Positions 1-30,564 are shown, numbered from the stretch's first letter. The stretch is DNA of 32,000 nt from Candidatus Saccharimonadota bacterium (GCF_002214165.1 NZ_CP019964.1:510001-542000), one strand, 5' to 3'. Numbers and translations are program-made. Notes: generated from the letters alone by a model not told the origin.

Positions 1-233
1 CAATTGCATAATTGTCGGCATCTTTATTTAATTCAATTAAATTAGGCATCATTTTTGGTCGGTGTTTCATCCATTCTATTATTTCTTCTTTACTTTTAAA
101 AAGTCATAAAATTTATTATATCTTTAAGATTATTGCTTGCATAAAGTTTGTTTAAATCTTCGTCATTCACATGTTATCAACTTAAATCAATTTTATCGAC
201 TTTTAAACTGATAGTAAATTATTTATAAATTAA

Positions 234-1259
234 CTAAACTGTTAGCCCTTCTCTTTCAACTAAGATTGCTTGAGCCTTTGACTTGCTTATCCTATTCAAT
301 ATAATCAGTATTATAAATAAATCTAGTTTACCGCAATAGATTAAATAGGGTATGGAGAAATTTTTAACATAATCCATTAGTTTGCTAATTTTTATATCTT
401 TTGAATTTAGAACTCTATAATCTAATTCATTTCTTATAGCACGTGAATACAAAGCTTTTAAAGCAATTTTTTGATTTGTTTTCAGTAAGAAATCCTTAAA
501 TAAAACATGATACATTTTATACTCTCTATCGTAATGCCCATTCCTTCCAAAAGGATTTGACCTTGAAGTATTATTTTTGTGTATCCTGTAATTTGTTAAT
601 TTTAAATTATCGCATAGAATTTTGCCTTTAATCGACATTGCGAGATATCCAAAAAAATCATCAGGATCAGTAATAATCTTTTTAATATAATCTATATTAT
701 TTATGGAAATTTGCCTTTTTATACTGACACAACTTAAATTGAAATAATATCCGAATAGAACAAACTTATAAATATACCTTTTACTTGAAGTAGGTATGAA
801 CCTCTTTATGTTTATATTGGGCATTTTAAGTGGTTTGTTATATTTATCTTCATAATTTACCTTAAAATCATTATGATAATATACTAAATCTTTATATTTT
901 GAAAACATTTCACTTACCACTTTAAGTTTTCTTCTTTCAAATGTATCGTCATCATCTAAGAAAGATATTATTTCTCCTTTTGAATGAATGATTCCCAATG
1001 CTAAAAATTGCCCTACAGAACCTTCTTTTTTATATATAATTTTAATTCCTTTGCTAATCCATTCTTTATCAAATTCTGTAATAAAATTCTTTACTATAAT
1101 TATCTCATAATTATGTTTTGGGAAATTTTGATTTAAAACAGATTGCACTGCATATTTAAGAAATTGCTTTCTATTATAAGCAGTTATAATTATTGATATG
1201 ATTGGATTATTCTTATTTTGCTCTTTTAATTTTATTATTGAATTAGGGGTTTTTTCCAT
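234..1259 (-). CDS. Glycosyltransferase family 2 (GT-A fold)
   Basis: The N-terminus reads ISIIITAYNRKQFLKYAVQSVLNQ, typical of the GT2 nucleotide-sugar binding region. A DDDD acidic (DxD-like) motif follows (FLDDDDTF). The ORF is 341 aa and intact. Confidence 0.8.
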   Translation of the reverse strand: MEKTPNSIIKLKEQNKNNPIISIIITAYNRKQFLKYAVQSVLNQNFPKHNYEIIIVKNFITEFDKEWISKGIKIIYKKEGSVGQFLALGIIHSKGEIISFLDDDDTFERRKLKVVSEMFSKYKDLVYYHNDFKVNYEDKYNKPLKMPNINIKRFIPTSSKRYIYKFVLFGYYFNLSCVSIKRQISINNIDYIKKIITDPDDFFGYLAMSIKGKILCDNLKLTNYRIHKNNTSRSNPFGRNGHYDREYKMYHVLFKDFLLKTNQKIALKALYSRAIRNELDYRVLNSKDIKISKLMDYVKNFSIPYLIYCGKLDLFIILIILNRISKSKAQAILVEREGLTV

Positions 1260-1290
1260 TTTTTAACACCTTTTTATAAATTCTAAATTT

Positions 1291-2439
1291 CTATTTTATA
1301 TTAGTCTTTTTATATTCCAAGTATTTATTTATTATTTTCAAATATTGTTTTTTGAAATTTTCATAGCTAAATCCTTGGCTATGCTTCCATGCATTGTAGC
1401 TTATCTGCTTATAATTTTTCTTTATTTTGTTTATTAACTCTGGAATCTCATTTATATCCTTAAACAAATATCCATTATATCCATCTTTTACTAATTCATC
1501 CATTGCAGTTCCTTTTCTTACTAAGACAGGGAGGCTGTGAGCTTCTGCCTCAATAAGGGGCATCCCAAAACCCTCATGATGGGAATTGCTTATGTATATA
1601 GTAGCTGGATTTAGCTCATTCTCAAAGTCATCAATTTTACTTGATAAGGTCGCATAATTATTTACGTTAAATCTAAGGGCTTCTCTATATTCGTCTTTGA
1701 ATTCTCTTGTTTGATAATTATCTCCAAATATTCTTATTGGGATTTTGTATTGGTTGCAAGCTCTCACCAACTCTGGGATCCCTTTGTTTAAAGCATACCT
1801 TCCCCAACTTATTAAATGGATCGGCTTTGTATACCTTTCTTGGTAAGGTAACTTATATTTATGGAATAATGGCAAAATATAGATATTATTTGACTTAAAG
1901 CCCAAATCAGCAATGCTCTGCTTTATAAACTGACTTTGTACTATAACAAAAGGATTCATATCTAATATAGATTGAAGCATTGTTTTGGAGTATATATTAA
2001 ATTCTGAATTATATCCTAAATATGGATAGGTTATACCATGATAAAATAGTATATCTCTTTCATGGAAATACCTAAATAATGTGTAAAAAGCGCCATAATG
2101 CCATATTCTTATATCTGCCTTTTCTATTAAATTTCTAGCTACGTTTGGCTTATATTCTTTTTTAGCGTTTAAGTATTCTTTTAACCACTTAGTTTTATTG
2201 TCTAATCGTATAAATCTACTGATAAGGTATGGTATTCCGGATATATAAGATGATTTATTATAATCTGCAGATGCCCAAACAGGGATCCCTTTATATTCAC
2301 TAAATAAATCTGCTATTAAGGAACTGCTCCAGTTGTTTTCTTTATTAATTTTATCTATTGCGAGCATTATATTACTTACCGCATCACCCTTAAATATTAC
2401 AGAGTGCAACTGTACAACATTTAGTTTTTTCTTATTCAT
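1291..2439 (-). CDS. Glycosyltransferase group 1 (GT4-like, GT-B fold)
   Basis: The C-terminal signature HHEGFGMPLIEAEAHSLPVLV...DGYNGYLF matches the EX7E retaining GT1/GT4 motif. The ORF is 382 aa. Confidence 0.8.
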   Translation of the reverse strand: MNKKKLNVVQLHSVIFKGDAVSNIMLAIDKINKENNWSSSLIADLFSEYKGIPVWASADYNKSSYISGIPYLISRFIRLDNKTKWLKEYLNAKKEYKPNVARNLIEKADIRIWHYGAFYTLFRYFHERDILFYHGITYPYLGYNSEFNIYSKTMLQSILDMNPFVIVQSQFIKQSIADLGFKSNNIYILPLFHKYKLPYQERYTKPIHLISWGRYALNKGIPELVRACNQYKIPIRIFGDNYQTREFKDEYREALRFNVNNYATLSSKIDDFENELNPATIYISNSHHEGFGMPLIEAEAHSLPVLVRKGTAMDELVKDGYNGYLFKDINEIPELINKIKKNYKQISYNAWKHSQGFSYENFKKQYLKIINKYLEYKKTNIK

Positions 2440-2550
2440 AAAAAATTTACCTTATTTTAAGATTATTCTATTAATCTTTTGATTATAATAATTATTTTTA
2501 GGTTTCCTATAATTTATTAATACTTGTAGGCAATAACTTTTAAATGGCTA

Positions 2551-4872
2551 GTGATTATTTTGAAGATTAATTCTGAATTTGATAATATAAAGCAGAAAAT
2601 ACCAATCTACTTAGTGGTAATAATACTTATCACACTGTCAATAGCTCAACCAATATTTGAATTTAAAAATAGTATATTTGTACATGAAGATACCCCATTT
2701 ATTGGCCTTACTTATTCATTTAATCAATATGTTAATAGTTTGTATAATAATTTTTTCATTTATAATAATTTGGATTATAGTGGGGTTATACAAAGAGGTA
2801 TGATAAGTCCCTTGAATTATCTATATAGTTTGTTGGTTTTGCCTTTAGCAATTACAAATGGTATACTAGCCAATATCTTAGAAAATATAGTCTTTTTATT
2901 AATAGGTAGCTTAGGTATGTTTATATTTCTTTATAAGTTATTTGAAAAAAGTGGTTATTATATCCGTATCACAAGCAGCCTTATAGGTACATTAATATTT
3001 TTTCCTTTTATTGGTGGAGAATCATCATTCTTGCCTTTTTGTTTCTTGTTTATTTTATTGATATTAAGAAATTTTAATAATAAAACATATAAATTAAAAA
3101 ATAATTCGCTTGTTCTGTTCGGATTAATTATTAGTGCCTCATTTTTATTTACGTTTGGAGGTTACAATTATTTAATTCCTGATTTTATATTATTTGTATT
3201 ACTAATAATAGTCATACCTATTTTTACACAAGATAAAAGATTAAACCTATTTTTTATATTACTTTTAGCTTTTGTAATTGCATTATTGATAAATTTAATC
3301 ATATTTTATGGGGCTTATTTACTATCGATAAGTAAATCAGCTAATATAAGTTATTATTCGTTCATGGGCTCGTTACCAGAACCATTTGCGACAAGTAATA
3401 TCCTTTATGCGTTGCAAATATTACCTTTTTCAAATAATCCTGTAATTTTTACTCTTAAATTACTTCTATTTGCACTTTCCGTATCTGGTGTATTAATATA
3501 CCTAAATAAAATAAAGCATAGTCCAAATTCTACTATAATAATCTCTTTATTGATAATCTTTATATTAATAACTTTCTTTTACAATACCATTTATAAGCCG
3601 TTTGGAGGTATCTTCAAATTTCTTATATTGAACTTTAAATCTTTATACGCAATAAGATCAGGAGATGGGTCATTTTCATATATAATGGGTTTCGTACTTA
3701 GTGTTTTCTCTTCGGCCACAATTATATTCTATAGAGACTATTTAAAAAATAGGGAATTAATTTTTACTTGGGGAATATTAATATTTATACTAATTAGTAT
3801 AGGTTTATTTTATTATAATGATATAACACCTTATACAAATATCAATTATTTTTATGTTAAAATACCTAACCATGTATATTTGGTTAGCAATTACATAAAT
3901 AATAAAAGCGGATATTTCAATGTAGGCATTTTACCTTCTGCTGCAGGATTTCAGTACTTAGATACTTGGTATACAGGTACCAATATATATTCTTACTTAA
4001 TAAACAAACCTGTTTATACTGGAGGTTATATAGCACAATCTGAGATATTTTATCCTGTAACTAAATATCTTTATGACGATGTATCATCAGAAATAGATAA
4101 TAATAAATTAAATGATAGTTATATATCACAGATTTTTGGAATCTTAGGGATAAAATATATTTTAGTCCAGGGCAATGCATTAGAAAGTAGCCCTTATGAC
4201 CAAAATTATTATGATCCCTTTAACCTAAATGAGGTATATATAAATTTAAACAATACTTACAATATAAAATTTGTTAAAAGATATTCAAATACATCCATAT
4301 ATGAAAATTTGGATTATGTCCCACTTATCTATACTACAAATATCTATAATATAGGCAATTCTTCTGATGGTGGATTAATTAAGTCAATAACAAATCAGTC
4401 ATTTGATATTAAAACTGATTCTGTATATATTACACATATTCCAGATTTTTACAATGACAGCGATACAATCAATGCAAGTAGTATACCTAATTTCAAAGAG
4501 CCAGAAATAAAGTTTAATTACAATAATCCGACTCAGATAACTGTCAAGGTAAGAAATGCAACCACGCCATTTTATCTTGTATTTAGGGAAACCTATGGAA
4601 GCCCCTGGCATGCGTATATCAATGGAAAACCTATCCCCTCAAAATACCATATTGCAGTCAATGGTTTTGCTAATGCCTGGTATATTAATAAAACAGGTAA
4701 CTACACGATTACTTTGTATTACACATTGCAGACGGATGCAGATGTTGCATGGATTGTAAGCTTCGCTGCACTTTTCGCAACAATTGGGATTGGGATTTAT
4801 GGCTGGAAAGAGAGTAAAAAGTCGAAGGCAAAAAGCAATAAGCGTATAATGGTAAAGGATTTAGGATTTTGA
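2551..4872 (+). CDS. Large polytopic membrane protein, possible GT-C-type glycosyltransferase (YfhO/DUF3367-like)
   Basis: This 773-aa ORF has a GTG start. About 450 aa of repeated hydrophobic helices are followed by an N/Y/T-rich soluble domain and a C-terminal TM anchor with a basic tail. The motif HIAVNGFANAWYINKTGNYTITLYY resembles C-termini of YfhO/arabinofuranosyltransferase-like proteins. No AglB WWDYG motif was seen. It sits among GT genes. Confidence 0.5.
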   Translation: MIILKINSEFDNIKQKIPIYLVVIILITLSIAQPIFEFKNSIFVHEDTPFIGLTYSFNQYVNSLYNNFFIYNNLDYSGVIQRGMISPLNYLYSLLVLPLAITNGILANILENIVFLLIGSLGMFIFLYKLFEKSGYYIRITSSLIGTLIFFPFIGGESSFLPFCFLFILLILRNFNNKTYKLKNNSLVLFGLIISASFLFTFGGYNYLIPDFILFVLLIIVIPIFTQDKRLNLFFILLLAFVIALLINLIIFYGAYLLSISKSANISYYSFMGSLPEPFATSNILYALQILPFSNNPVIFTLKLLLFALSVSGVLIYLNKIKHSPNSTIIISLLIIFILITFFYNTIYKPFGGIFKFLILNFKSLYAIRSGDGSFSYIMGFVLSVFSSATIIFYRDYLKNRELIFTWGILIFILISIGLFYYNDITPYTNINYFYVKIPNHVYLVSNYINNKSGYFNVGILPSAAGFQYLDTWYTGTNIYSYLINKPVYTGGYIAQSEIFYPVTKYLYDDVSSEIDNNKLNDSYISQIFGILGIKYILVQGNALESSPYDQNYYDPFNLNEVYINLNNTYNIKFVKRYSNTSIYENLDYVPLIYTTNIYNIGNSSDGGLIKSITNQSFDIKTDSVYITHIPDFYNDSDTINASSIPNFKEPEIKFNYNNPTQITVKVRNATTPFYLVFRETYGSPWHAYINGKPIPSKYHIAVNGFANAWYINKTGNYTITLYYTLQTDADVAWIVSFAALFATIGIGIYGWKESKKSKAKSNKRIMVKDLGF

Positions 4873-4916
4873 TGTTTTATTTTTTATTATTCATTTAAAA
4901 TCAATCAAGGTATTAA

Positions 4917-6026
4917 ATGACGAAAATAGCTTTTGTATCTGACGTTGCATATCCCTGGGTAAAGGGAGGCATGGAGTCGATACAATATTTAGAGATGAAA
5001 AATCTTTCCGAAAAGAATGATGTTTACTGCTTCTGCCTTCAGTTTGAAAAGATGAAAAAGGAATTTGATAAAGAAGGAATACATTATATTACTGTTGCAA
5101 AGGCCTCTGTAAAAGATCTTTATACTTCTAAGGGCAGCAGGTCCATAAAACTTGCAATGAAGTTCGCAAGGGCTTTGCCTAGAGCTATTAAAGATTACAA
5201 CTTTGACTTTATATATGCAAATACTTTTCCCTATCTGCATTTGAAATATGTAAAATCTTACTGCAGATCGCACAATTGCATACTTGCACTTGATGTTGCT
5301 GAGGTATGGGATTTAAAGCGCTGGAAGGGTTATCTTGGAACTTTAAAAGGCACTGCTGCATATCGCTATGCAAAAAATGCTATTCACGGTGCTGATTATT
5401 ATGTAGCAAATTCGTCTGTTACCGCAAGCCAGCTGAATTCTGTTGGGATAAAGCCTAATAAAATCAAAATACTTTCTCCGGTATTAGACCTAAAAATCCG
5501 TGTCAAGAAATCAAAAAGGGATACATCTGTGGTCTATTCAGGCAGGCTAATAAAGGAAAAGAGATTGGACCTGTGGATTGATGCTGTGGCCAAGGCACAT
5601 TCGCTAAATCCAAATATAAAGGGCATTATCATAGGCTCAGGTCCTGAAGAAACCCATATCCGCGATCTTGCATCTTCTTACGATTTCATAAAAATGAGAA
5701 AGCCTTATGCAACCAAATTATGGCTTTATAATGAACTTCGCAGGTCAATGTGCTTCCTGAATATGAGCGAGCGTGAGGGCTTAAGTATAACCACGATAGA
5801 AAGCGCATTCCTTGAAACTCCACCTTTGCTGCCTGATTATACCCCAATACCAGATGAGGTAAAAGAGATATCTATTGTTAAAAGTTTAAATTCTATTCCA
5901 GAAGCAATAGTAGATATAGCTTCTGGAAAAATCAATTATAAATTAGACAAAGATAAATTGAAAAAATTCGATATAACAACGATAAATCCTTTATTTGAAA
6001 GACTTATCCGTAAAAGAAAAGCTTAA
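4917..6026 (+). CDS. Glycosyltransferase group 1 (GT4-like)
   Basis: The segment FLNMSEREGLSITTIESAFLETPPL matches the EX7E-type GT1 C-terminal motif. A central GSGPEE segment is typical of the GT-B interdomain region. The ORF is 369 aa. Confidence 0.8.
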   Translation: MTKIAFVSDVAYPWVKGGMESIQYLEMKNLSEKNDVYCFCLQFEKMKKEFDKEGIHYITVAKASVKDLYTSKGSRSIKLAMKFARALPRAIKDYNFDFIYANTFPYLHLKYVKSYCRSHNCILALDVAEVWDLKRWKGYLGTLKGTAAYRYAKNAIHGADYYVANSSVTASQLNSVGIKPNKIKILSPVLDLKIRVKKSKRDTSVVYSGRLIKEKRLDLWIDAVAKAHSLNPNIKGIIIGSGPEETHIRDLASSYDFIKMRKPYATKLWLYNELRRSMCFLNMSEREGLSITTIESAFLETPPLLPDYTPIPDEVKEISIVKSLNSIPEAIVDIASGKINYKLDKDKLKKFDITTINPLFERLIRKRKA

Positions 6027-6172
6027 CAAAACTTCTAATTGCCCCAATAATCTATTTATTCTCTGATGATTTTATATTTCTTATTTATATTGTGTTTTCT
6101 AATGGACATATTTATTCCAAATATACGCTTCATGGCCTTGCTCGAAAGCTTTACCGGATCGAATACTATTAA

Positions 6173-6520
6173 TTAAGGCACTTTGCTTGCTATGCTGTAG
6201 GCTTTCGGATCTACTTTCCTGCCAGACTTAATGGGATTGGAGTCAATATAGTTATACAATGCAAATCCACGTTCCATCAATATCTTGAAAAAAGTCTCAA
6301 ATGTAACATGCCTTACTGGCATTAAAACCTTCCATGTCCTGTACCTTATATCTTCCTTGAAGTAGTCGCTAAATTTCCTGTAAAATTTAGGCTTTCCTTC
6401 AATAGGCTCAGATACATCTATAACAGGGTTTCCTTCAGATATGATTAAGTGACCCTTATCCTTTAAAACCCTATAAATTGAGTAACCAACTGATAAATAG
6501 TTATATTTGGTTACCTCCAA
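6173..6520 (-). CDS. Hypothetical protein, possibly the C-terminal remnant of a larger gene (methyltransferase-like tail)
   Basis: There is no ATG start; TTG is used at 6520. The frame stays open about 17 more codons upstream to a stop without any ATG. The segment LKDKGHLIISEGNP resembles the end of class I SAM-methyltransferase folds. The assignment is weak. Confidence 0.3.
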   Translation of the reverse strand: MEVTKYNYLSVGYSIYRVLKDKGHLIISEGNPVIDVSEPIEGKPKFYRKFSDYFKEDIRYRTWKVLMPVRHVTFETFFKILMERGFALYNYIDSNPIKSGRKVDPKAYSIASKVP

Positions 6521-6710
6521 CTTTGGACTTTTTCCTTTAATTGGCCAAAATAGCAGAATTTGAGAATCTTAAATATCATTTTAATTTGTAAATATCCCAT
6601 AATATAAGGTTTTATAAGCGTCCTATACCAAATAATTGTATATATTAATGATTCATGAATTACTGACAATTTAAATTTATCAAACCTTTAAAAATAATTT
6701 AAGGATATAT

Positions 6711-7487
6711 ATGAAAACATTATATGTATATGGAACAGTTTATAATAACAGAGATATAATAGAAAAAAGTATAAGTTCATTATATCCCCTTACTAAACAG
6801 TTTAAGCTTTATTTTTCTATAATTGACAATTTTTCATCGGATGGAACTTATCAATGGCTAATATCAAATTCCAATAAATACAAAAATATGACTTTTAATA
6901 TAAAGCAGGTCAAATGTAACAGAGGTAAGGGTAGATCATTGGCTTTAAATCAAATATTAAAAGTAGCTAATCCTAATTCTTTTACATTTTATATAGATTT
7001 CGATACAATATATTTGCCAAGATACCTTGATTACATAATTGATTTTGTTAGCCACAAGTACAGAAATAAAATAGGAATTGGCCATTTAAGCTTAGTAAAG
7101 TATAATTATAAGGTTGGATGGAAAAGCCTTAATTATGGTGAAGATGTCGAAAGGACAGCACATTTTAGATTAGATGGGTATAAAATAGATATGATACGGC
7201 ATGAGGATTATTCGTTTGCTATTAACCAAGATAGAGGTAATTCAGCCAAAGAAAGGGAAGCTCACTATGATAAAGGATTAAGGTATTATATTAGAATATT
7301 TTTTAATGCTGTTGATATGGAAAGAGGATGGGCATTTCCGAATTTTCATGAGTTTTATAATGTATCTAAAATTAAATCTAAATCTAGGTATATAATTTTC
7401 ATGCTTGCTTATTTGGTAGCCAATATTGAAGGAATTTATAGGTACTCAAAGAAAGAGAATAATTGGGATTTTTTTAGAAGACAATAA
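6711..7487 (+). CDS. Glycosyltransferase family 2-like protein
   Basis: IIDNFSSDGT matches the GT2 DNxSxDGT motif, RGKGRSLALNQ is GT2-like, and a DFD acidic motif is present. The ORF is 258 aa with an ATG start preceded by an A/T-rich region. Confidence 0.65.
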   Translation: MKTLYVYGTVYNNRDIIEKSISSLYPLTKQFKLYFSIIDNFSSDGTYQWLISNSNKYKNMTFNIKQVKCNRGKGRSLALNQILKVANPNSFTFYIDFDTIYLPRYLDYIIDFVSHKYRNKIGIGHLSLVKYNYKVGWKSLNYGEDVERTAHFRLDGYKIDMIRHEDYSFAINQDRGNSAKEREAHYDKGLRYYIRIFFNAVDMERGWAFPNFHEFYNVSKIKSKSRYIIFMLAYLVANIEGIYRYSKKENNWDFFRRQ

Positions 7488-7612
7488 TAAACAGTGTAAT
7501 ATATAAAAAGATAGGCAAGTCACGTGTACAAATTTACATAATATAATATTTTTTGTATACTTGAAAATAATAGAGGATAATATTTTCCAACTATAAATAT
7601 TTTATACAAATT

Positions 7613-8533
7613 CTATCTGTGAAGATCTTTGGACCTTTCCGCAATCTTTACAGCCCTTATATATGAAAGAAATCCGATTATTATTACTGCGAATATCACC
7701 AAGAAGAACCCTATCCCAAGATCATGAAGATTGTGTATCTTAAGCGGAGTCACAATATCGTAAGTCAAAAGCCAGGGAAATTCCAAGATCAAGGAACCCG
7801 ACACCATGAAAGCTAATCCCCCATAAAGGAGGACATCGGAGCTTATGGTCCTAGCGACAAAAGCTATCCCTTTTTGAGTAAGTTTCTTCGCACTTGTGAG
7901 CCATCTCCCGAATCCTGCCCCAAACAGTATCTGCATTATCATTGTGCCTATCCCGAACATGAATCCGGGGACCCACCCTACCCAAGGACTTGGCATCGCG
8001 GGCGAAAGGACTGTATATATTATCAGCGCAAATGCTCCAAATCCAAAACCTGCTATAAGGCCGTGAAGGAACGCCAATTTTGATGGGACTGCTTTCAATT
8101 GTGGTGATGAATCAGTTGTATTTAGAGGATTCAGAACATGCTCCTCTTCCAAAAGATGGGATTTGCTCCCTTTCTTATGTATGCCTACCATATAGCTAAG
8201 TTTCTCCTCTATCCAATGCCAATGGGGGTAAATCTTCTTATTCTTTATGTAAATCCCTGCCGCCAGCATAGCAAGACCGACAAATACATAGGTAATGCCA
8301 AATGCTGTAGCTGTCATGAATATTCCTGCCAGTGCGAAATAAGCGATTTCTGATAAAATTGACCTCTGAAGGGTAAACCCGCTTGAAAATATGAATCCTG
8401 CTTTCATTCCTCCTTTCGTGCTGTAGCTTCCTACAGCATAAGAGAAGGTTATCGGCCATGTGTGCTCATCGGGGGTTATCCCATGTACGAATCCTAAAAG
8501 CAGAGCGATTATTATTGCTGTGTAGAATCCCAC
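7613..8533 (-). CDS. Polytopic membrane protein, possible metal (Ni/Co-type) transporter
   Basis: This 306-aa ORF has about 7-8 hydrophobic segments. The N-terminal helix carries GFVHGITPDEH, reminiscent of His/Asp motifs in HupE/UreJ and NicO-type transporters. A His-rich loop (HWHW, HKKGSKSH) is also present. The functional call is tentative. Confidence 0.4.
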   Translation of the reverse strand: MGFYTAIIIALLLGFVHGITPDEHTWPITFSYAVGSYSTKGGMKAGFIFSSGFTLQRSILSEIAYFALAGIFMTATAFGITYVFVGLAMLAAGIYIKNKKIYPHWHWIEEKLSYMVGIHKKGSKSHLLEEEHVLNPLNTTDSSPQLKAVPSKLAFLHGLIAGFGFGAFALIIYTVLSPAMPSPWVGWVPGFMFGIGTMIMQILFGAGFGRWLTSAKKLTQKGIAFVARTISSDVLLYGGLAFMVSGSLILEFPWLLTYDIVTPLKIHNLHDLGIGFFLVIFAVIIIGFLSYIRAVKIAERSKDLHR

Positions 8534-24943: not shown

Positions 24944-26026
24944 CTAAAATTCTATAACGGATTTTAAGCCCTTCTGGTTTTTGACATCATCTTTTGTTAG
25001 ATCGCCTATCTTTATTCTTTTGGTTATAAAGAGCTTCAGAACGTCTCCGTAAGCGGATTTTATCCTTGCCATATCTGAAACCCCGTTTACGAAATAGGAT
25101 TTGTTGGCGTTTACAACCCCTACTATCACCCTGTTGTTTAGGACCATATTGTAATTTAATCTTGCCAGATCCATGTCGTTGATGAACTTTCCACCTGTTA
25201 CGCTCAAAAGCGCTATTACCGAGTTCACTCCGGCCAAATCAAAAACCTCCGGCAAAACCTCTGGGCTTCCTGTTGCCTCTACAACTATGTCTATCTGCTT
25301 GTCCTTCTCAATTATGCCCATCGGGCTTTCTTTCTTTGAATTTACATGGATTATCCCTACCTTGGATATTATTTGACCTTTAGCGTCATCCTCGTGGTCG
25401 GTTCTATCTATAGCGTATACTTTCATCCCTCTCAGCTTTAGCAATATCGCTGTCAGCAATCCTACGGGGCCCGTACCGAATACGACCGCAACTTTAGGCT
25501 CCCATAACATCCTTTCCTGTATCTTGAACACCTGCTTTACCGCTTTCTCCGCGATGGTCATCGGCTCTAGAAGAACAGCTTCTTCGCTTAACTCATCTGG
25601 GATTACGATCAGATTCTCTGGCTTTTCAGTGTAATACTCCGACATGTAGCCGTCCAATCCTTTTATACCTCTTTCCTTGTAATTTCCGGTAAGGCACATG
25701 TCCGATTCCCCTGCTAGGCAGTTGATGCAATTGTCGCCTCTCCTGACTGTTGCGACTACCTTGTCACCGACTTTTACCCCTTCTGCCTTATCCCCCAAAG
25801 CCACAACTACGCCAAATGATTCGTGCCCTATTACCAGCCTTTTCAGCCCCTCTGGAGGCTCGCCATACAATCCTTCATCAATCTCCTTATCGGTACCGCA
25901 TATGCCTACGCGGATCACTTTTATGAGCGCTTCGTCTTCCTTTGGTTTCGGCTCTGGTATGTCCTCAATATGCAAACTGTCTTTTTTTAATGGGAAAACA
26001 ACTACTGCTTTCATATCAATCATCAA
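24944..26026 (-). CDS. Zinc-dependent MDR dehydrogenase, glucose 1-dehydrogenase-like
   Basis: The catalytic zinc region is GICGTDKE...GHES. The structural-zinc lobe is VRRGDNCINCLAGESDMCL. The Rossmann motif is VVFGTGPVGLL. Overall it resembles archaeal glucose/aldose dehydrogenases. The start is possibly MKAVVV at 26014. Confidence 0.75.
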   Translation of the reverse strand: MMIDMKAVVVFPLKKDSLHIEDIPEPKPKEDEALIKVIRVGICGTDKEIDEGLYGEPPEGLKRLVIGHESFGVVVALGDKAEGVKVGDKVVATVRRGDNCINCLAGESDMCLTGNYKERGIKGLDGYMSEYYTEKPENLIVIPDELSEEAVLLEPMTIAEKAVKQVFKIQERMLWEPKVAVVFGTGPVGLLTAILLKLRGMKVYAIDRTDHEDDAKGQIISKVGIIHVNSKKESPMGIIEKDKQIDIVVEATGSPEVLPEVFDLAGVNSVIALLSVTGGKFINDMDLARLNYNMVLNNRVIVGVVNANKSYFVNGVSDMARIKSAYGDVLKLFITKRIKIGDLTKDDVKNQKGLKSVIEF

Positions 26027-26130
26027 TTACTAAGAACAGAAGAAATATCTTAACCCTATTTGCCAAAAACTTTTATTTTATAGCGCAAACGGCAAAATTA
26101 GATTGAATTTGTTTATCTGCTTTTCTAAAA

Positions 26131-26222
26131 TGGGCCCGCGGAGATTTGAACTCCGGACCTCTCGATTTCAAAATTTAATTTTTTATCAGTCGAGCGCTCC
26201 AACCAAGCTAAGCTACGAGCCC
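26131..26222 (-). tRNA. tRNA-Ile (anticodon GAU) with a 17-nt intron at position 37/38
   Basis: The hand-folded minus-strand sequence is GGGCTCG-TA-GCTT-AGCTTGGTTG-GAGC-G-CTCGA-CTGATA[AAAAATTAAATTTTGAA]A-TCGAG-AGGTC-CGGAG-TTCAAAT-CTCCG-CGGGCCC-A. All four stems pair, with one G-U in the acceptor stem. The anticodon is at 26185-26187 and the intron at about 26167-26183. No CCA is encoded. TTTT follows immediately 3' of the gene. Confidence 0.9.
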
Positions 26223-26237
26223 ATAAGTACTGCAAAG

Positions 26238-26250
26238 AGATTTAAAAAGC
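26238..26250 (-). promoter_or_regulatory. TATA-like box upstream of tRNA-Ile
   Basis: The minus strand reads CTTTTTAAATC, centred about 25 nt upstream of tRNA position 1. This fits archaeal TATA spacing. Confidence 0.4.
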
Positions 26251-26417
26251 AAAATATTAAATATTTGCTAATTTTTCCTGTTAAAATAGGATTTGGCATT
26301 TTGCATGCTTTAGTGTATTACATTTATGAATTTACCGGCAACATGCCACATAATAAAAACATAAAACATTAGGATATTTTAACATTCTAATTTGGTACAC
26401 AGATTAATTATTTTGAT

Positions 26418-26600
26418 TTATCCGTTTATTTGTATTCGATTCTTAGTACTCTCTAATTTTTTCTTTCCGCTTTTATTTAATTTCCTACTGGCTTCAAAAA
26501 TTAGAAATTTTCTATCTAGAAATTTAAGTTCCAGTCTCTGTCCATATGTACTTTTTAGTCCATTGAATGCTTCTTGGACTTTTTCTGGAACTTCCACCAT
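26418..26600 (-). pseudogene. Orphan N-terminal cassette (60 codons) of the tandem Lrp-like paralogue family, with intact upstream region
   Basis: The translation MVEVPEKVQEAFNGLKSTYGQRLELKFLDRKF... matches the first 13 aa of the 28460-29806 protein exactly. It then resembles the 26813-28186 protein (ELKFLNGKFRIFE). DNA at 26524-26648 aligns with 29730-29854, including a 58-bp perfect core. No HTH modules follow. Confidence 0.6.
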
Positions 26601-26812
26601 TTAGAGGCCTTAGTGCAATACAACACATTAAAATTATTTATTGGTTGCTTGCATCAATTGATTAAGTATTTTTGGAACTGTTTTTACTAAATTATACTTA
26701 AAAGGTCTAGAGATCTCTTTAAATTAGTTCCTCTAATTTTAGAATCGGGTAAGGGTATAAAAATGGTTGGTGGGTATTAGATAATATAAATTTTTATAAC
26801 CTGGTTTATTGT

Positions 26813-28186
26813 TCAAACACCATATGAGACTCTTTTCTTTGGCGATATGGATTTCCTTTTTACAAGATTTATATACTGCATGCTGTAAAGATTGTCAAAC
26901 TTTCTGTAATCAATATCCCCAACTATTGCTTTCTCAACGATTAATGAATCGAATTTTACTCCTTTTATTATCTCTGAAAGCTCACTTTTGATTTTACCTA
27001 TGTCTTTTTCATTAAGAATGGGGAAAAGATACAATATGGCATTAGGAATTTCCATATCACAGATGTAAGAGAACCTATTAATCAGGTACTCTGGTTCATC
27101 TATTATATATTTACGGTGGTTATCCCTAAACCTCATAAACTCTGTATAATTGATCAAAACTGCAATTAATGCCATATCATATTTCTTGTTGATATTCTTT
27201 ACCATTAAAGTTGGTCTTGATATTACGTTCTTCCCTTCTTCGTTTTTAAGATCATTATATGCTTTCTTTGCACTGCCTGCGGGAAGATTGTACTTTTTGT
27301 CTATAGATGATAAACTCTTTCTACTATTCTCGTTAAGTTCACGAAGAAGTGCGTACTCTCTATAGGTTAAACTTGACAGATTATGTTTCTCGCCCTTCTT
27401 TTTCCTTTGCCAGACCTTTTCTTTAAGTGCATCAAAGAACTCCTGCCTTAATGGTATAAAACCGTAACTACCGGCTATGGGAGTTATGTACCATTCTGCT
27501 TCTATATCATTTAAGGCTTCAGAAGTCCTTATGTTATCAAGGACTTCTGCAACGACATTGTTGTTTTCTGCAACACAGAAAATTACCAGATCATAGATTC
27601 CCTTGGTTGCAAGTGCAAGCTGGACCATCGGATTTTTACTTATTCCCTCTTTTATCTTTTCAAAGTTAAGCTTATCCCTTGTGAATTTTGCAAGAATCAT
27701 ATATTCGGAGAATCCAAGATTGTTCATGTTTAATTCAAGCGTATACTTTATCCCAAGCAGTCTTTCAAGCCTCTCTATCCGGTATTCGAGTGCATGGATT
27801 GATATTCCGGTTATTTCAGATAGTCCTTTAAGGGAAAGCCTTGAATTCATGCTCAAGGCCTTAAGCAATTTTATATCGTTATTCTTTAAAGTAAGTTTTT
27901 TGTTTGGAGATTTATTTTCTTCAACATTATTGTTAATCTTGAGTTTCTCACCATTTCCAAATTTTAAATTCTTACGCTTAGGCCTTGCAGGAACTATAAA
28001 TCCGTCCTTTGTTATATATCCTATATAATTGGTTACTCTTATTGGCTCGTTGCTTTGACTATCCTCCTTATAAGTTACTTCAAAAATACGAAATTTGCCA
28101 TTTAAGAACTTCAATTCTGCATCGCGCCCATATGCATCCTTTAGCTCTTGAAACGCTTTTAAGACTTTTTTCGGAAATTTTACCAT
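26813..28186 (-). CDS. Tandem double Lrp/AsnC-module (2 x wHTH + RAM-like) protein with unassigned N-terminal domain, paralogue B
   Basis: In this 457-aa ORF, module 1 is DIKLLKALSMNSRLSLKGLSEITGISIHALEYRIERLERLLGIKYTLELNMNNLGF plus NPMVQLALATKGIYDLVIFCVAENN, an Lrp/AsnC HTH with a RAM-like pattern. Module 2 is YREYALLRELNENSRKSLSSIDKKYNLPAGSAKKAYNDLKNE... plus a second RAM-like half. The first about 95 aa match nothing I recognise. Confidence 0.7.
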   Translation of the reverse strand: MVKFPKKVLKAFQELKDAYGRDAELKFLNGKFRIFEVTYKEDSQSNEPIRVTNYIGYITKDGFIVPARPKRKNLKFGNGEKLKINNNVEENKSPNKKLTLKNNDIKLLKALSMNSRLSLKGLSEITGISIHALEYRIERLERLLGIKYTLELNMNNLGFSEYMILAKFTRDKLNFEKIKEGISKNPMVQLALATKGIYDLVIFCVAENNNVVAEVLDNIRTSEALNDIEAEWYITPIAGSYGFIPLRQEFFDALKEKVWQRKKKGEKHNLSSLTYREYALLRELNENSRKSLSSIDKKYNLPAGSAKKAYNDLKNEEGKNVISRPTLMVKNINKKYDMALIAVLINYTEFMRFRDNHRKYIIDEPEYLINRFSYICDMEIPNAILYLFPILNEKDIGKIKSELSEIIKGVKFDSLIVEKAIVGDIDYRKFDNLYSMQYINLVKRKSISPKKRVSYGV

Positions 28187-28459
28187 TCAGATGCCTTAAA
28201 TTAATATAACATATTGGTTATTTATTAATTGCCAATAGGTAACTAAAAAATTTGAAGATAAAAGTTTTTACTAAATTATACTTTAAAAGGCAGAAACTTA
28301 TTTAAATTAATCTGCTCCATTTTCCTTTGTAATGTTTAAAAAGGGTGAGAATATGGAAAAAGGACCAGCAGGTGGAGGATAAATAGTATTAATTTAAGTA
28401 GTATTTTTTAATATTAGTAAGGTTTTCTGGTTTAAATTCTATGTTAATCTAATTTTATA

Positions 28460-29806
28460 TCAATTAAATTGTATCCTTTGTTGTGGCCGAATCGATTTCC
28501 TTTTTACAAGATTTATATACTGCATGCTGTAAAGATTGTCAAACTTTCTGTAATCAATATCCCCAACTATTGCTTTCTCAACGATTAATGAATCGAATTT
28601 TACTCCTTTTATTATCTCTGAAAGCTCGTTCTCGGTTTTCTCAATGTCTCCCTCTTTAAGTGCAGGGAAAAGGTAGAATATGCCATTAGGGGTCTCCATA
28701 TCACAGATGTAAGAGAACCTATTAATAAACCGATTAGGCTCATTTATTATATATTTATGGTGGTTATCCCTAAACTTCATAAACTCGGTATAATTGATCA
28801 AAACTGCAATTAATGCTATATCATATTTCTTGTTAATCTTCTTTACCCTTAAAGTTGGCCTTGATATAACATTCTTTCCTTCTTCATTTTTAAGATCCTT
28901 ATATGCTTTCTTGGCACTGCCTGCGGGAAGATTGTACTTTTTATCTATGGCTGATAAACTCTTTTTACTATTCTCGTTAAGTTCATGAAGAAGTGCGTAC
29001 TCCCTGTACATTAAACTTGATAGACTTGGGCGTTCTCCCTTCTTTTTCCTTTGCCAGACCTTTTCTTTAAGTGCATCAAAGAACTCCTGCCTTAATGGTA
29101 TAAAACCATAGTCACCAGAAATAGGAGTTATGTACCATTCTGCTTCTATATCATTTAAGGCTTCAGAAGTCCTTATGTTATCAAGGACTTCTGCAACGAC
29201 ATTGTTGTTTTCTGCAACACAGAAAATTACCAGATCATAGATTCCCTTGGTTGCAAGTGCAAGCTGGACCCTCGGATTCTTTTCCAAGAAATCTCCTATT
29301 TTCTCAAAGTTGGGTTTACTCCTTGTGAATTTTGCAAGAATCATATATTCGGAAAATCCAAGATTGTTCATGTTTAATTCAAGCGTATACTTTATCCCAA
29401 GTAGTCTTTCAAGCCTTTCGATGCGGTATTCGAGTGCATGGATCGATATCCCTGTTATCTCTGATAATCTTTTAAGAGAAAGCCTTGAGTTCATGCTCAA
29501 GGCCTTAAGCAATTTTATATCTTCATCGCTTATATTGTTCCCTGTTATATTTTTGCTCTTCCGCTCTTTTTTCTCCTTATTGCTTATCTTTTTATAAACA
29601 AGGGATGCCTGCTTTGAATCTGCAAGTATAACTATCCCGTTTGAGGTTATTCGGCCAATATAGCTATCGGATTCACTAGACTCTTCATTGCTATTAGTAA
29701 GAAAGACGTAGAACTCGTTGTCTATTATCTTAAGTTCCAAGCTCTGCCCATATATGCCTTTTAACTCGTTGAATGCTTCTTGGACTTTTTCTGGAACTTC
29801 CACCAT
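28460..29806 (-). CDS. Tandem double Lrp/AsnC-module protein with unassigned N-terminal domain, paralogue C
   Basis: This 448-aa ORF has the same architecture as 26813-28186. The core is roughly 85-90% identical in protein sequence by eye. The N-terminal about 100 aa are much more diverged, although the motif xVxxPxKVxxAFxELKxxYGxxxELK is retained. Confidence 0.7.
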   Translation of the reverse strand: MVEVPEKVQEAFNELKGIYGQSLELKIIDNEFYVFLTNSNEESSESDSYIGRITSNGIVILADSKQASLVYKKISNKEKKERKSKNITGNNISDEDIKLLKALSMNSRLSLKRLSEITGISIHALEYRIERLERLLGIKYTLELNMNNLGFSEYMILAKFTRSKPNFEKIGDFLEKNPRVQLALATKGIYDLVIFCVAENNNVVAEVLDNIRTSEALNDIEAEWYITPISGDYGFIPLRQEFFDALKEKVWQRKKKGERPSLSSLMYREYALLHELNENSKKSLSAIDKKYNLPAGSAKKAYKDLKNEEGKNVISRPTLRVKKINKKYDIALIAVLINYTEFMKFRDNHHKYIINEPNRFINRFSYICDMETPNGIFYLFPALKEGDIEKTENELSEIIKGVKFDSLIVEKAIVGDIDYRKFDNLYSMQYINLVKRKSIRPQQRIQFN

Positions 29807-29970
29807 TTAGAGGCCTTAGTGCAATATAACGCATTAAAATTATTTATTGGTTGCTATAGGCAGCAGTTTGAAGATTTTGGTATTGTACCTTTATGAATAT
29901 TGAAACGCTTCTTGTTTACGATCTTGAAATTGCAATACATAAAGAGCGAAAAAAAGTATTAAATTGATAG

Positions 29971-30564
29971 TCAAAAATGTATTATTCGTGTTGGCTTTAC
30001 ATAACAGTTCCTGCATCTTGGCTCGTACAATCCCTTTCCGCCTATTTTTATTATAGCTCCAAAATATGGCTTTCCATCATTTATCCTTTGTGTAAATGTG
30101 GCATCCTCTCCGCATTTCGAGCAAACGGCAGTAAGCGAATATATTTCATCTGAAATGCCCAAAATCTTTTTCGTAATTGCAAAGGGTTTCCCAAAATGGT
30201 CCCTGTTCAACGCAGAGCAGTAGATAGTTTTTCCAGAAAATGCGAGGTCTTCTATGAAATCGTCAATATGCGAGGATTCCTTCCAGAATTGAACTTCGTC
30301 AAACCCGATTATATTTATGCCTTTTATTTTACCCTTGATCGAATCCCTAGAGTCCAATCCAATTGGGGATCTTATTGCATTCATCTTTATTCCGTTGTGG
30401 CTTGTAACCTCGTTTTCAGAATACCTGAAATCTATATTTGGCTTAAATAATGCAACCTTTCTTCCAGCTCTCATATGCCTTTCAAGGAGCTCTATCAGCC
30501 TGGAGGTTTTTCCGGAGAACATAGGGCCTGTTATAGTTATTACTTTACCAATCTTATTACCCAA
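29971..30564 (-). CDS. tdk: Thymidine kinase
   Basis: The P-loop is GPMFSGKTS. DEVQFW is present. The C-terminal zinc motif is CSKCG...CRNCY. At 197 aa it fits type II TK. Confidence 0.93.
   Translation of the reverse strand: MGNKIGKVITITGPMFSGKTSRLIELLERHMRAGRKVALFKPNIDFRYSENEVTSHNGIKMNAIRSPIGLDSRDSIKGKIKGINIIGFDEVQFWKESSHIDDFIEDLAFSGKTIYCSALNRDHFGKPFAITKKILGISDEIYSLTAVCSKCGEDATFTQRINDGKPYFGAIIKIGGKGLYEPRCRNCYVKPTRIIHF

Follow-up and report, generated by a model that had tools for sequence, protein, structure and literature searches.

The window analysed here is a stretch of 32,000 nucleotides (nt) from Candidatus Mancarchaeum acidiphilum (Micrarchaeota, DPANN). Its minus strand carries two adjacent paralogous genes, gene 1 (g1) and gene 2 (g2), between the thymidine kinase gene tdk and a tRNA-Ile(GAU) gene. 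Each encodes an N-terminal domain (N-domain), a linker, and a body of two fused Lrp/AsnC units. The order on the minus strand is tdk, g2, g1, a 60-amino-acid (aa) remnant, tRNA-Ile(GAU), an alcohol dehydrogenase (ADH) gene, and Lon. The two proteins are 75% identical. Together with the 60-aa open reading frame (ORF), they are exact matches to consecutive entries in the closed 952,257-bp genome of strain Mia14. The two genes are located as follows.

28460 to 29806, minus strand: g2, 448 aa, proximal to tdk, with an acidic N-domain, linker, and two Lrp/AsnC units (ASI13885.1)
26813 to 28186, minus strand: g1, 457 aa, proximal to the tRNA gene, with a basic, family-typical N-domain, linker, and two Lrp/AsnC units (ASI13884.1)

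Identity tracts and concerted evolution of the gene pair

An initial annotation, made from the sequence alone, had described a fixed offset of 1644 bp between the two genes, perfect tracts of 147, 134, and about 71 bp amid clustered substitutions, and a strongly diverged 5′ region of about 300 bp that varies in length. Alignment reproduces these features at the same coordinates. At the +1644 offset, the bodies align without gaps over 1062 nt with 121 differences (88.6% identity). The 5′ ~300 nt are about 50% identical and unequal in length. The aligned bodies and their longest tracts are the following.

26832 to 27893, minus strand: homogenised g1 body (both Lrp units and the C-terminal tail), pairing with 28476 to 29537 at offset 1644
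28476 to 29537, minus strand: homogenised g2 body, pairing with 26832 to 27893 at offset 1644
27480 to 27626, minus strand: longest perfect tract, 147 nt, equal to 29124 to 29270, within the RAM domain of Lrp unit 1
26850 to 26983, minus strand: perfect tract of 134 nt, equal to 28494 to 28627, at the 3′ end of unit 2
27393 to 27463, minus strand: perfect tract of 71 nt, equal to 29037 to 29107

Other perfect runs measure 47, 33, 32, and 32 nt. When the differences between g1 and g2 are shuffled, the longest run averages 44 nt, and none of 20,000 shuffles reaches 147 nt (P<5e-5). A shuffle that preserves codon position has the same outcome. Third codon positions taken by themselves differ at 70 of 354 sites (20%). 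Their longest stretches without a difference span 51 (P=3e-4), 44, and 23 codons, and the sum of these three is matched in none of 5,000 shuffles. The differences are therefore non-uniform at silent sites as well. Because the tracts are visible at third codon positions, selection at the protein level cannot explain them.

A sister genome, the metagenome-assembled genome (MAG) GCA_021798935.1, allows gene conversion to be tested. One of its contigs (L002) ends with tdk and the family gene P0002. A second contig opens with the last codons of a family gene, a spacer, and P0005, after which come tRNA-Ile and Lon. The final 60 nt of L002 overlap the opening of this second contig with 1 mismatch, and thus the sister species has the same tandem pair. 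In a codon alignment of the quartet g1, g2, P0002, and P0005, the two parts of the gene group differently. Informative sites in the first 300 nt favour the orthologue grouping (g1+P0005/g2+P0002; 26 sites) over the within-genome grouping (g1+g2/P0002+P0005; 7 sites) and the third grouping (g1+P0002/g2+P0005; 5 sites). In the remaining ~1100 nt, 152 sites support the within-genome grouping, 8 the orthologue grouping, and 6 the third.

Synonymous divergence (dS, Nei-Gojobori) gives the same contrast. In the body, dS is 0.34 between g1 and g2 and 0.22 between P0002 and P0005, compared with 1.4 to 1.7 between genomes. In the N-domain, g1 and g2 are saturated, and the orthologue pairs g1-P0005 and g2-P0002 stand at 0.8 and 1.9. 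The ratio of nonsynonymous to synonymous divergence (dN/dS) is 0.1 to 0.25 in the body and 0.11 to 0.47 in the N-domain orthologue pairs. These low values indicate purifying selection on both modules of both copies. P0002 and P0005 have perfect tracts of their own (184 and 110 nt) at other positions than those in g1 and g2, and perfect runs common to orthologues do not exceed 31 nt. In both lineages, the 5′ limit of homogenisation is the start of the first helix-turn-helix (HTH), just past the length-variable linker.

The gene pair has thus evolved in concert, through gene conversion whose limit is the boundary between N-domain and linker. Since each N-domain has a positional orthologue in the sister species, the speciation came after the tandem duplication. 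Homogenisation of the bodies took place separately in the two lineages, and the uneven silent-site divergence points to several conversion events of differing ages. Recurrent conversion between the paralogues that spares the N-terminal module, as first suggested in the initial annotation, is supported by both the quartet sites and the dS contrasts with the sister pair.

Short-tract gene conversion has repeatedly homogenised the body from the first HTH to near the stop codon, leaving perfect tracts and older patches. Conversion, or the survival of converted alleles, halts at the length-variable linker, and the N-domains have therefore diverged to synonymous saturation under purifying selection. 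The low-complexity linker, variable in length, may block heteroduplex extension. Alternatively, selection may remove converted N-domains.

Exchange is probably not confined to the tandem pair. g1 and the dispersed Mia14 paralogue P0004 have a perfect run of 61 nt in common in the HTH region, and the segment variant LINYTEFMKFRD occurs in g1, g2, and the sister paralogue P0008. These segments common to several loci could also be read as traces of a different history, in which a recent whole-gene duplication in each lineage was followed by a one-off replacement of the 5′ module from another paralogue, with no recurrent conversion of the body. Donors would be available among the dispersed paralogues (P0004 and P0023 in Mia14, P0008 in the sister genome). 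However, such a history requires two lineages to have arrived independently at one arrangement of the two N-domain types, with the acidic one by tdk and the basic one by tRNA-Ile. It also conflicts with the strongly heterogeneous synonymous divergence of the body, where runs of 51 and 44 codons stand against 20% difference overall (P=3e-4). We regard it as quite unlikely.

Protein architecture and the N-domain family

The architecture was examined in an AlphaFold2 model of g2 built from a 25-sequence family alignment (mean predicted local distance difference test score, pLDDT, 86; predicted template-modelling score, pTM, 0.75). Residues 1-62 form a helix and four strands (pLDDT about 75-80), and residues 65-90 form a disordered, basic linker rich in K and E. 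Residues 94-234 contain a three-helix HTH (~94-136) followed by a RAM domain of beta-alpha-beta-beta-alpha-beta order. A second three-helix HTH and RAM domain occupy residues 267-414, with a short C-terminal helix after them. The previously proposed arrangement, a domain of about 95 aa followed by two units of winged HTH plus RAM, holds for both Lrp/AsnC units by model and Foldseek. The 95-aa domain does not hold as such, as it consists of a fold of ~62 aa and a disordered linker of ~30 aa.

Sequence profiles assign the first HTH directly. PF13404 (HTH_AsnC-type) scores 31.0 bits in g1 and 32.6 bits in g2 against a cut-off of 27, and for PF13412 the scores are 27.8 and 25.6 bits (cut-off 21.9). 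No other part of the chain reaches a Pfam cut-off, and Pfam families leave the second unit undetected. The RAM domain is recovered structurally in both units, from the order of secondary-structure elements and from Foldseek. The HTH1 and HTH2 profiles align in register (E=0.008), and relatives of ~350 aa that lack the N-domain carry two canonical HTH_AsnC domains. The second unit is therefore a true, diverged Lrp unit. The best NCBIfam matches are the LysM (E=2e-12), AsnC, Lrp, and ChrS regulators, all far below their equivalog cut-offs (47 bits vs 180). Since both the HTH and the RAM features are present, g1 and g2 are members of the Lrp/AsnC superfamily with a non-canonical architecture.

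Canonical Lrp/AsnC (FFRP) regulators are single units of ~150 aa that pair via RAM. Examples are Pyrococcus FL11/PH1519 (2cyy, 2e1c), E. coli Lrp and AsnC (2gqq, 2cg4), and Sulfolobus LysM. g1 and g2 resemble them in having an AsnC-type winged HTH and a RAM domain in each half of the body. They differ in that two units are fused in a chain of ~450 aa (457 and 448 aa), the second HTH is strongly diverged, and the ~62-aa N-domain and disordered linker are added. The fused body also occurs in P0029-P0032, ~350-aa double-HTH_AsnC proteins of other Micrarchaeota that also have the LGIKYTLEL motif (28-33% identity over about half of the query). Unlike g1 and g2, these proteins, which are just as uncharacterised, have a canonical AsnC-type HTH in each unit and neither N-domain nor linker.

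The initial annotation placed the whole architecture outside any described family, and this assessment stands: no equivalog model is reached, and no paper was found on the g1/g2 family or on locus tag Micr_00798. The only Lrp/AsnC gene named in the paper on the Mia14 genome is a different one, located in a copper island (PMC5498576).

In Foldseek searches of the PDB, the top match to the g2 model is NirDL (4ch7; E=1.9e-11, 364 columns, target template-modelling (TM) score 0.65, 14% identity). It is followed by dozens of Lrp/AsnC/FFRP regulators that match one unit each (135-151 columns, E 1e-6 to 1e-4, target TM 0.7-0.79). The match to NirDL raises the question of whether g1 and g2, instead of regulating transcription, act as enzymes or bind tetrapyrroles in the manner of the NirDL/AhbAB sirohaem decarboxylases. 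The best whole-chain matches are indeed the enzyme NirDL (4ch7 and 4czc; E about 2e-11 and 4e-11; 364-366 columns), and AhbA/B (4czd) is matched too. This is very unlikely to reflect a common function. Identity to NirDL is 13-14%, and no AhbA or AhbB model in NCBIfam matches g1 or g2 at E<=0.1, whereas the LysM, AsnC, and Lrp models do. HTH1 is a canonical AsnC-type HTH. The neighbouring genes are those for tdk, tRNA-Ile, ADH, Lon, and TopoVI, along with permeases and a tRNA-binding protein; haem and d1 genes are absent from this neighbourhood, as they are from the paralogue loci. NirDL, an enzyme of haem/d1-haem synthesis without N-domain or linker, is the sole solved chain with a fused double Lrp/AsnC fold among the PDB matches listed, and thus the whole-chain match is mainly topological.

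The N-domains of the two genes are encoded by the following regions.

29609 to 29806, minus strand: g2 N-domain, residues 1-66, helix 6-19 and four strands, net charge -7, shortened acidic hairpin loop, orthologous to the P0002 N-domain
27974 to 28186, minus strand: g1 N-domain, residues 1-71, hairpin of full length matching the family consensus, net charge +6, orthologue of the P0005 N-domain

The N-domain had not been recognised from any described regulator family, and database searches agree. Pfam returns no match in searches with 19 and then 39 diverse N-domains, and no model in NCBIfam, PHROGs, or PADLOC covers the domain. Profile searches of the PDB give inconsistent best matches (E=0.14-0.9). 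Foldseek with the N-domain model gives a best E of 1.0 in the PDB and of 0.019 in BFVD, the latter to an uncharacterised phage protein, and nothing significant. A likeness of the hairpin pattern YYVYR..WD..KK....YLGxI to some transposase/integrase N-termini was considered; no tool result supported it, and it was dropped.

The N-domain architecture is not peculiar to this locus but defines a sizeable Micrarchaeota-specific family. HMMER searches with an N-domain profile retrieve 366 clusters (50%-identity representatives) at E<=1e-3, 121 of them at E<=1e-10. The matches listed are the best 150 of the 366, and weaker ones may carry other architectures. The family size comes from this exhaustive search alone, as word-indexed profile searches return few short fragments on tiny contigs. 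Among 188 retrieved sequences, 130 are at least 400 aa long with the N-domain at residues ~1-70, and the short ones lie mostly on sub-kilobase contigs. Of 10 distant members tested, 8 have HTH_AsnC after the linker. Micrarchaeota, or MAGs co-binned with them, account for every named member and for each of the 31 loci in GTDB species genomes. Database labels for the family are the generic "Lrp/AsnC family transcriptional regulator" or "hypothetical". g2 is missing from its own search matches because of a database clustering artefact: its 90%-identity cluster (P0198-P0203) is represented by unrelated JGI "hypothetical proteins" of 44-55 aa.

Invariant residues of the N-domain across the family include P5, Y49, G51, and G57 (g2 numbering). 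The hairpin loop is rich in K and R, and the net charge of the N-domain in 125 full-length members has a median of +8 and a range of +3 to +14, with six exceptions. These are g2, its chimera P0204, and P0004 at -7, P0002 and P0003 at -4, and the unrelated P0077 at -5. The charge-reversed set comprises P0002, P0003, P0004, P0077, P0197, and P0204, against 119 others. The basic hairpin loop is ~5 residues shorter in the g2 clade. The pairing of a basic with a charge-reversed N-domain is conserved in the sister species. The earlier suggestion of an exchangeable specificity or partner domain is not borne out. The N-termini of g1 and g2 have diverged from each other but are homologous, and the domain they represent is constant across the family; no case of its replacement by another domain was seen among the matches listed.

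Copy number and surroundings of the array

The array is bounded by two conserved genes and contains a truncated third unit.

29971 to 30564, minus strand: tdk, upstream boundary of the array, syntenic across all related loci
26130 to 26223, minus strand: tRNA-Ile(GAU), whose anticodon loop contains a 17-nt intron, bounding the array downstream (Rfam tRNA, 54.4 bits; ARAGORN intron option)
26418 to 26649, minus strand: truncated third unit, a promoter/leader copy and a 60-aa ORF (26418 to 26600; WP_088820159.1, hypothetical protein)

The TK family PF00265 is matched in the related loci L002, L003, L007, and L045. With default settings, ARAGORN finds no tRNA anywhere in the window; tRNA-Ile(GAU) is recovered by Rfam and by ARAGORN with the intron option.

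The truncated unit, which the initial annotation had missed, is probably a pseudogene remnant. Positions 26515-26649 are homologous to 29721-29855 (88%), and the ORF spans just the first half of the N-domain and ends before the invariant Y..G..G motif. The unit is itself a mosaic. Between -50 and +38, just 2 mismatches separate it from g2; beyond this it is closer to g1 and to the family consensus (FLIFEASRK). It is absent from the sister loci L003 and L006. With it, the family complement of Mia14 comprises four full-length paralogues, P0004 and P0023 being the dispersed ones, and one remnant.

Copy-number variation in the interval from tdk to tRNA-Ile, which had been proposed as a check, is seen across related assemblies. 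In two of them, a single chimeric gene replaces the tandem pair. P0003 (L003 8001-9338, MAG GCA_027357825.1) is P0002-like to about nt 1080 and P0005-like thereafter. P0204 (L045 5001-6350, a metagenome contig from JGI) corresponds to g2 up to the 134-nt tract, which holds its junction, and has the 3′ end of g1. Both junctions lie inside the longest identical tracts. The chimeras are either unequal-crossover deletions or assembly collapses. They were not accepted as proof of real deletions, as the junctions sit where an assembler would collapse the repeat too. Homologous recombination within identical tracts would also alter copy number, giving rise to single chimeric genes and truncated units.

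The collapsed single-copy versions in other assemblies, the assignment of the window to a metagenome-assembled contig (DAHXOH010000006.1, MAG GCA_027364975.1), and the highly conserved protein segments that the tracts encode might suggest that the perfect tracts are artefacts of purifying protein selection or of short-read assembly merging near-identical repeats, but this is barely credible given that the tracts are present at third codon positions alone, that body dS is 4-7 times lower within genomes than between them, that the closed Mia14 genome and an independent MAG encode identical g1, g2, and fragment proteins and a third metagenome contains g2 DNA at 99.8% identity, and that the sister species repeats the pattern with other tract positions.

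Dispersed paralogues show rearrangements of their own. In the sister genome GCA_021798935.1, paralogue P0008, at a third locus, is split by a frameshift into ORFs of 379 aa and 79 aa (L016 4001-5495; the same gene appears in L004 and L005). An extra duplicated 3′ fragment with a 50-aa ORF follows it in L016. The L016 paralogue also carries LINYTRFMKFRD, a segment variant whose other occurrences are in the window's g1 and g2, and this hints that loci have exchanged sequence.

The array (26000-30000) has a G+C content of 0.30-0.36, compared with 0.44-0.49 in flanking housekeeping genes (Lon, ADH, RNR, LeuRS). Searches of PADLOC and PHROG found neither a mobile-element nor a defence signature accompanying the lowered G+C. 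An integrated mobile element or defence island beside the tRNA gene was considered and rejected. No integrase and no PADLOC or PHROG match is present, and the synteny of tdk, the family gene or genes, tRNA-Ile, and Lon is kept in sister genomes. A zinc alcohol/glucose dehydrogenase-like gene lies between tRNA-Ile and Lon (24944-26026, minus strand). In the sister loci L003 and L006, tRNA-Ile is directly followed by Lon without it, and this gene is a lineage-specific insertion adjoining the tRNA gene. At the other end of the window, positions 1-8500 hold a glycosyltransferase gene cluster (GT2 and GT1/GT4 families) of very low G+C (0.25-0.31). It includes a 773-aa ORF (2551-4872) and two more ORFs, without a Pfam match, and looks like a variable surface-glycan island.

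Proposed function and significance

Lrp/AsnC proteins form dimers through their RAM domains, bind effectors at RAM interfaces, and are frequently autoregulated. By analogy, each g1 or g2 chain would be a single-chain pseudo-dimer of an Lrp/AsnC regulator whose two non-equivalent HTHs would read an asymmetric DNA site. Both proteins probably respond to a small-molecule effector, which would be bound at the intramolecular RAM-RAM interface. A candidate DNA target precedes the genes themselves.

29807 to 29860, minus strand: g2 promoter/leader, conserved ~50 nt, with a TATA-like, A/T-rich stretch between about -41 and -27 and the motif AAGGC from -11 to -7
28187 to 28290, minus strand: g1 promoter/leader and inter-unit spacer, with a core common to g2

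Across five units from three genomes, the ~50 nt upstream of each ATG have in common the core ...CAAYYAATAAATAA..AATRYGTTRTATT....TAAGGC.TCT.AATG, which from its sequence is a putative promoter. The three leaders in the window span 29807-29860 (g2), 28187-28240 (g1), and 26601-26650 (fragment). g1 and g2 probably bind this leader, as autoregulation of related proteins suggests. The claim that the promoter/leader is duplicated with each unit is correct for the ~50-nt core. Past ~60 nt it fails for g2, whose upstream region abuts tdk and is unlike those of g1 and the fragment. The latter two have a further upstream element in common (28264-28287 and 26680-26703, 96%).

The recognition regions of g1 and g2 are nearly identical, and therefore both should read the same DNA. 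The proteins differ in the N-domain, along the linker, at the C-terminal tail, and in a few patches of the RAM domains (g1 residues ~174-190 and ~366-404). The two proteins thus probably act at the same sites with different outputs or partners. The N-domain, usually very basic, may add a nucleic-acid-contact or oligomerisation function; speculatively, its role would be one of these or, in the acidic form, modulation. Purifying selection has preserved the charge-reversed g2-type N-domain in at least two species, and also in P0004, one of the dispersed paralogues. The pair might even be a built-in antagonist system. The basic g1 N-domain would act in nucleic-acid contact or self-association, and the acidic g2 N-domain would mask or neutralise it as a DNA mimic or anti-activator, within one molecule or between molecules. 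With their DNA-reading and RAM interfaces held identical by gene conversion, the two proteins would compete for sites or form mixed oligomers. This idea is a tentative one and more probably wrong than right by a wide measure.

Taken as a whole, an old tandem duplication, conversion restricted to the body, and pseudo-dimer regulators as the products make up an account that we consider likely. Several points weigh against it. The sister tandem is pieced together from two overlapping contig ends rather than read from a single contig, the single-copy chimeras could be assembly collapses, and two lineages do not resolve the number and direction of conversion events. The promoter and first 38 nt of the fragment are in common with g2, so that the 5′ end is not absolutely barred from exchange. 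On the protein side, the RAM family PF01037 stays below its Pfam cut-off (18.3 and 20.5 bits vs 25), the second HTH is degenerate in sequence (just HTH_27 in Pfam, E=0.14) and may not bind DNA, and the best whole-chain structural matches are to an enzyme. DNA binding, effector, and regulon of g1 and g2 are features that we infer.

Concerted evolution by gene conversion is known for tufA/tufB in Salmonella and for rRNA operons. The present pair resembles these systems in that within-genome paralogues are closer than orthologues, in its mosaic tracts, and in copy change by unequal crossover. Unlike in them, homogenisation is bounded by an intragenic domain border, one module escapes, charge reversal included, and the host is a genome-reduced DPANN archaeon. 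The gene pair is thus an undescribed architecture variant of a known superfamily with well-documented domain-bounded concerted evolution. Both concerted evolution and the Lrp/AsnC superfamily are already known, and no established idea is overturned.

DPANN archaea such as Mancarchaeum have genomes of ~1 Mb and depend on hosts. To our knowledge, they have few regulators, which are essentially unstudied. The family described here adds an unstudied group of regulators with hundreds of sequence clusters across Micrarchaeota and an N-domain absent from Pfam, PDB, and BFVD. If the antagonist idea were true, domain-bounded concerted evolution would serve to keep modulator and regulator matched in an archaeon that has very few transcription factors, and the N-domain would represent a new module at the level of fold, restricted to Micrarchaeota. 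Independently of this, the locus is a clean natural example of conversion bounded by a domain border, with the body kept alike, and a sister species shows the pattern independently. The locus suggests a way for paralogous regulators to remain matched, and the N-domain and the ~50-nt leader are defined targets for structural and DNA-binding work.

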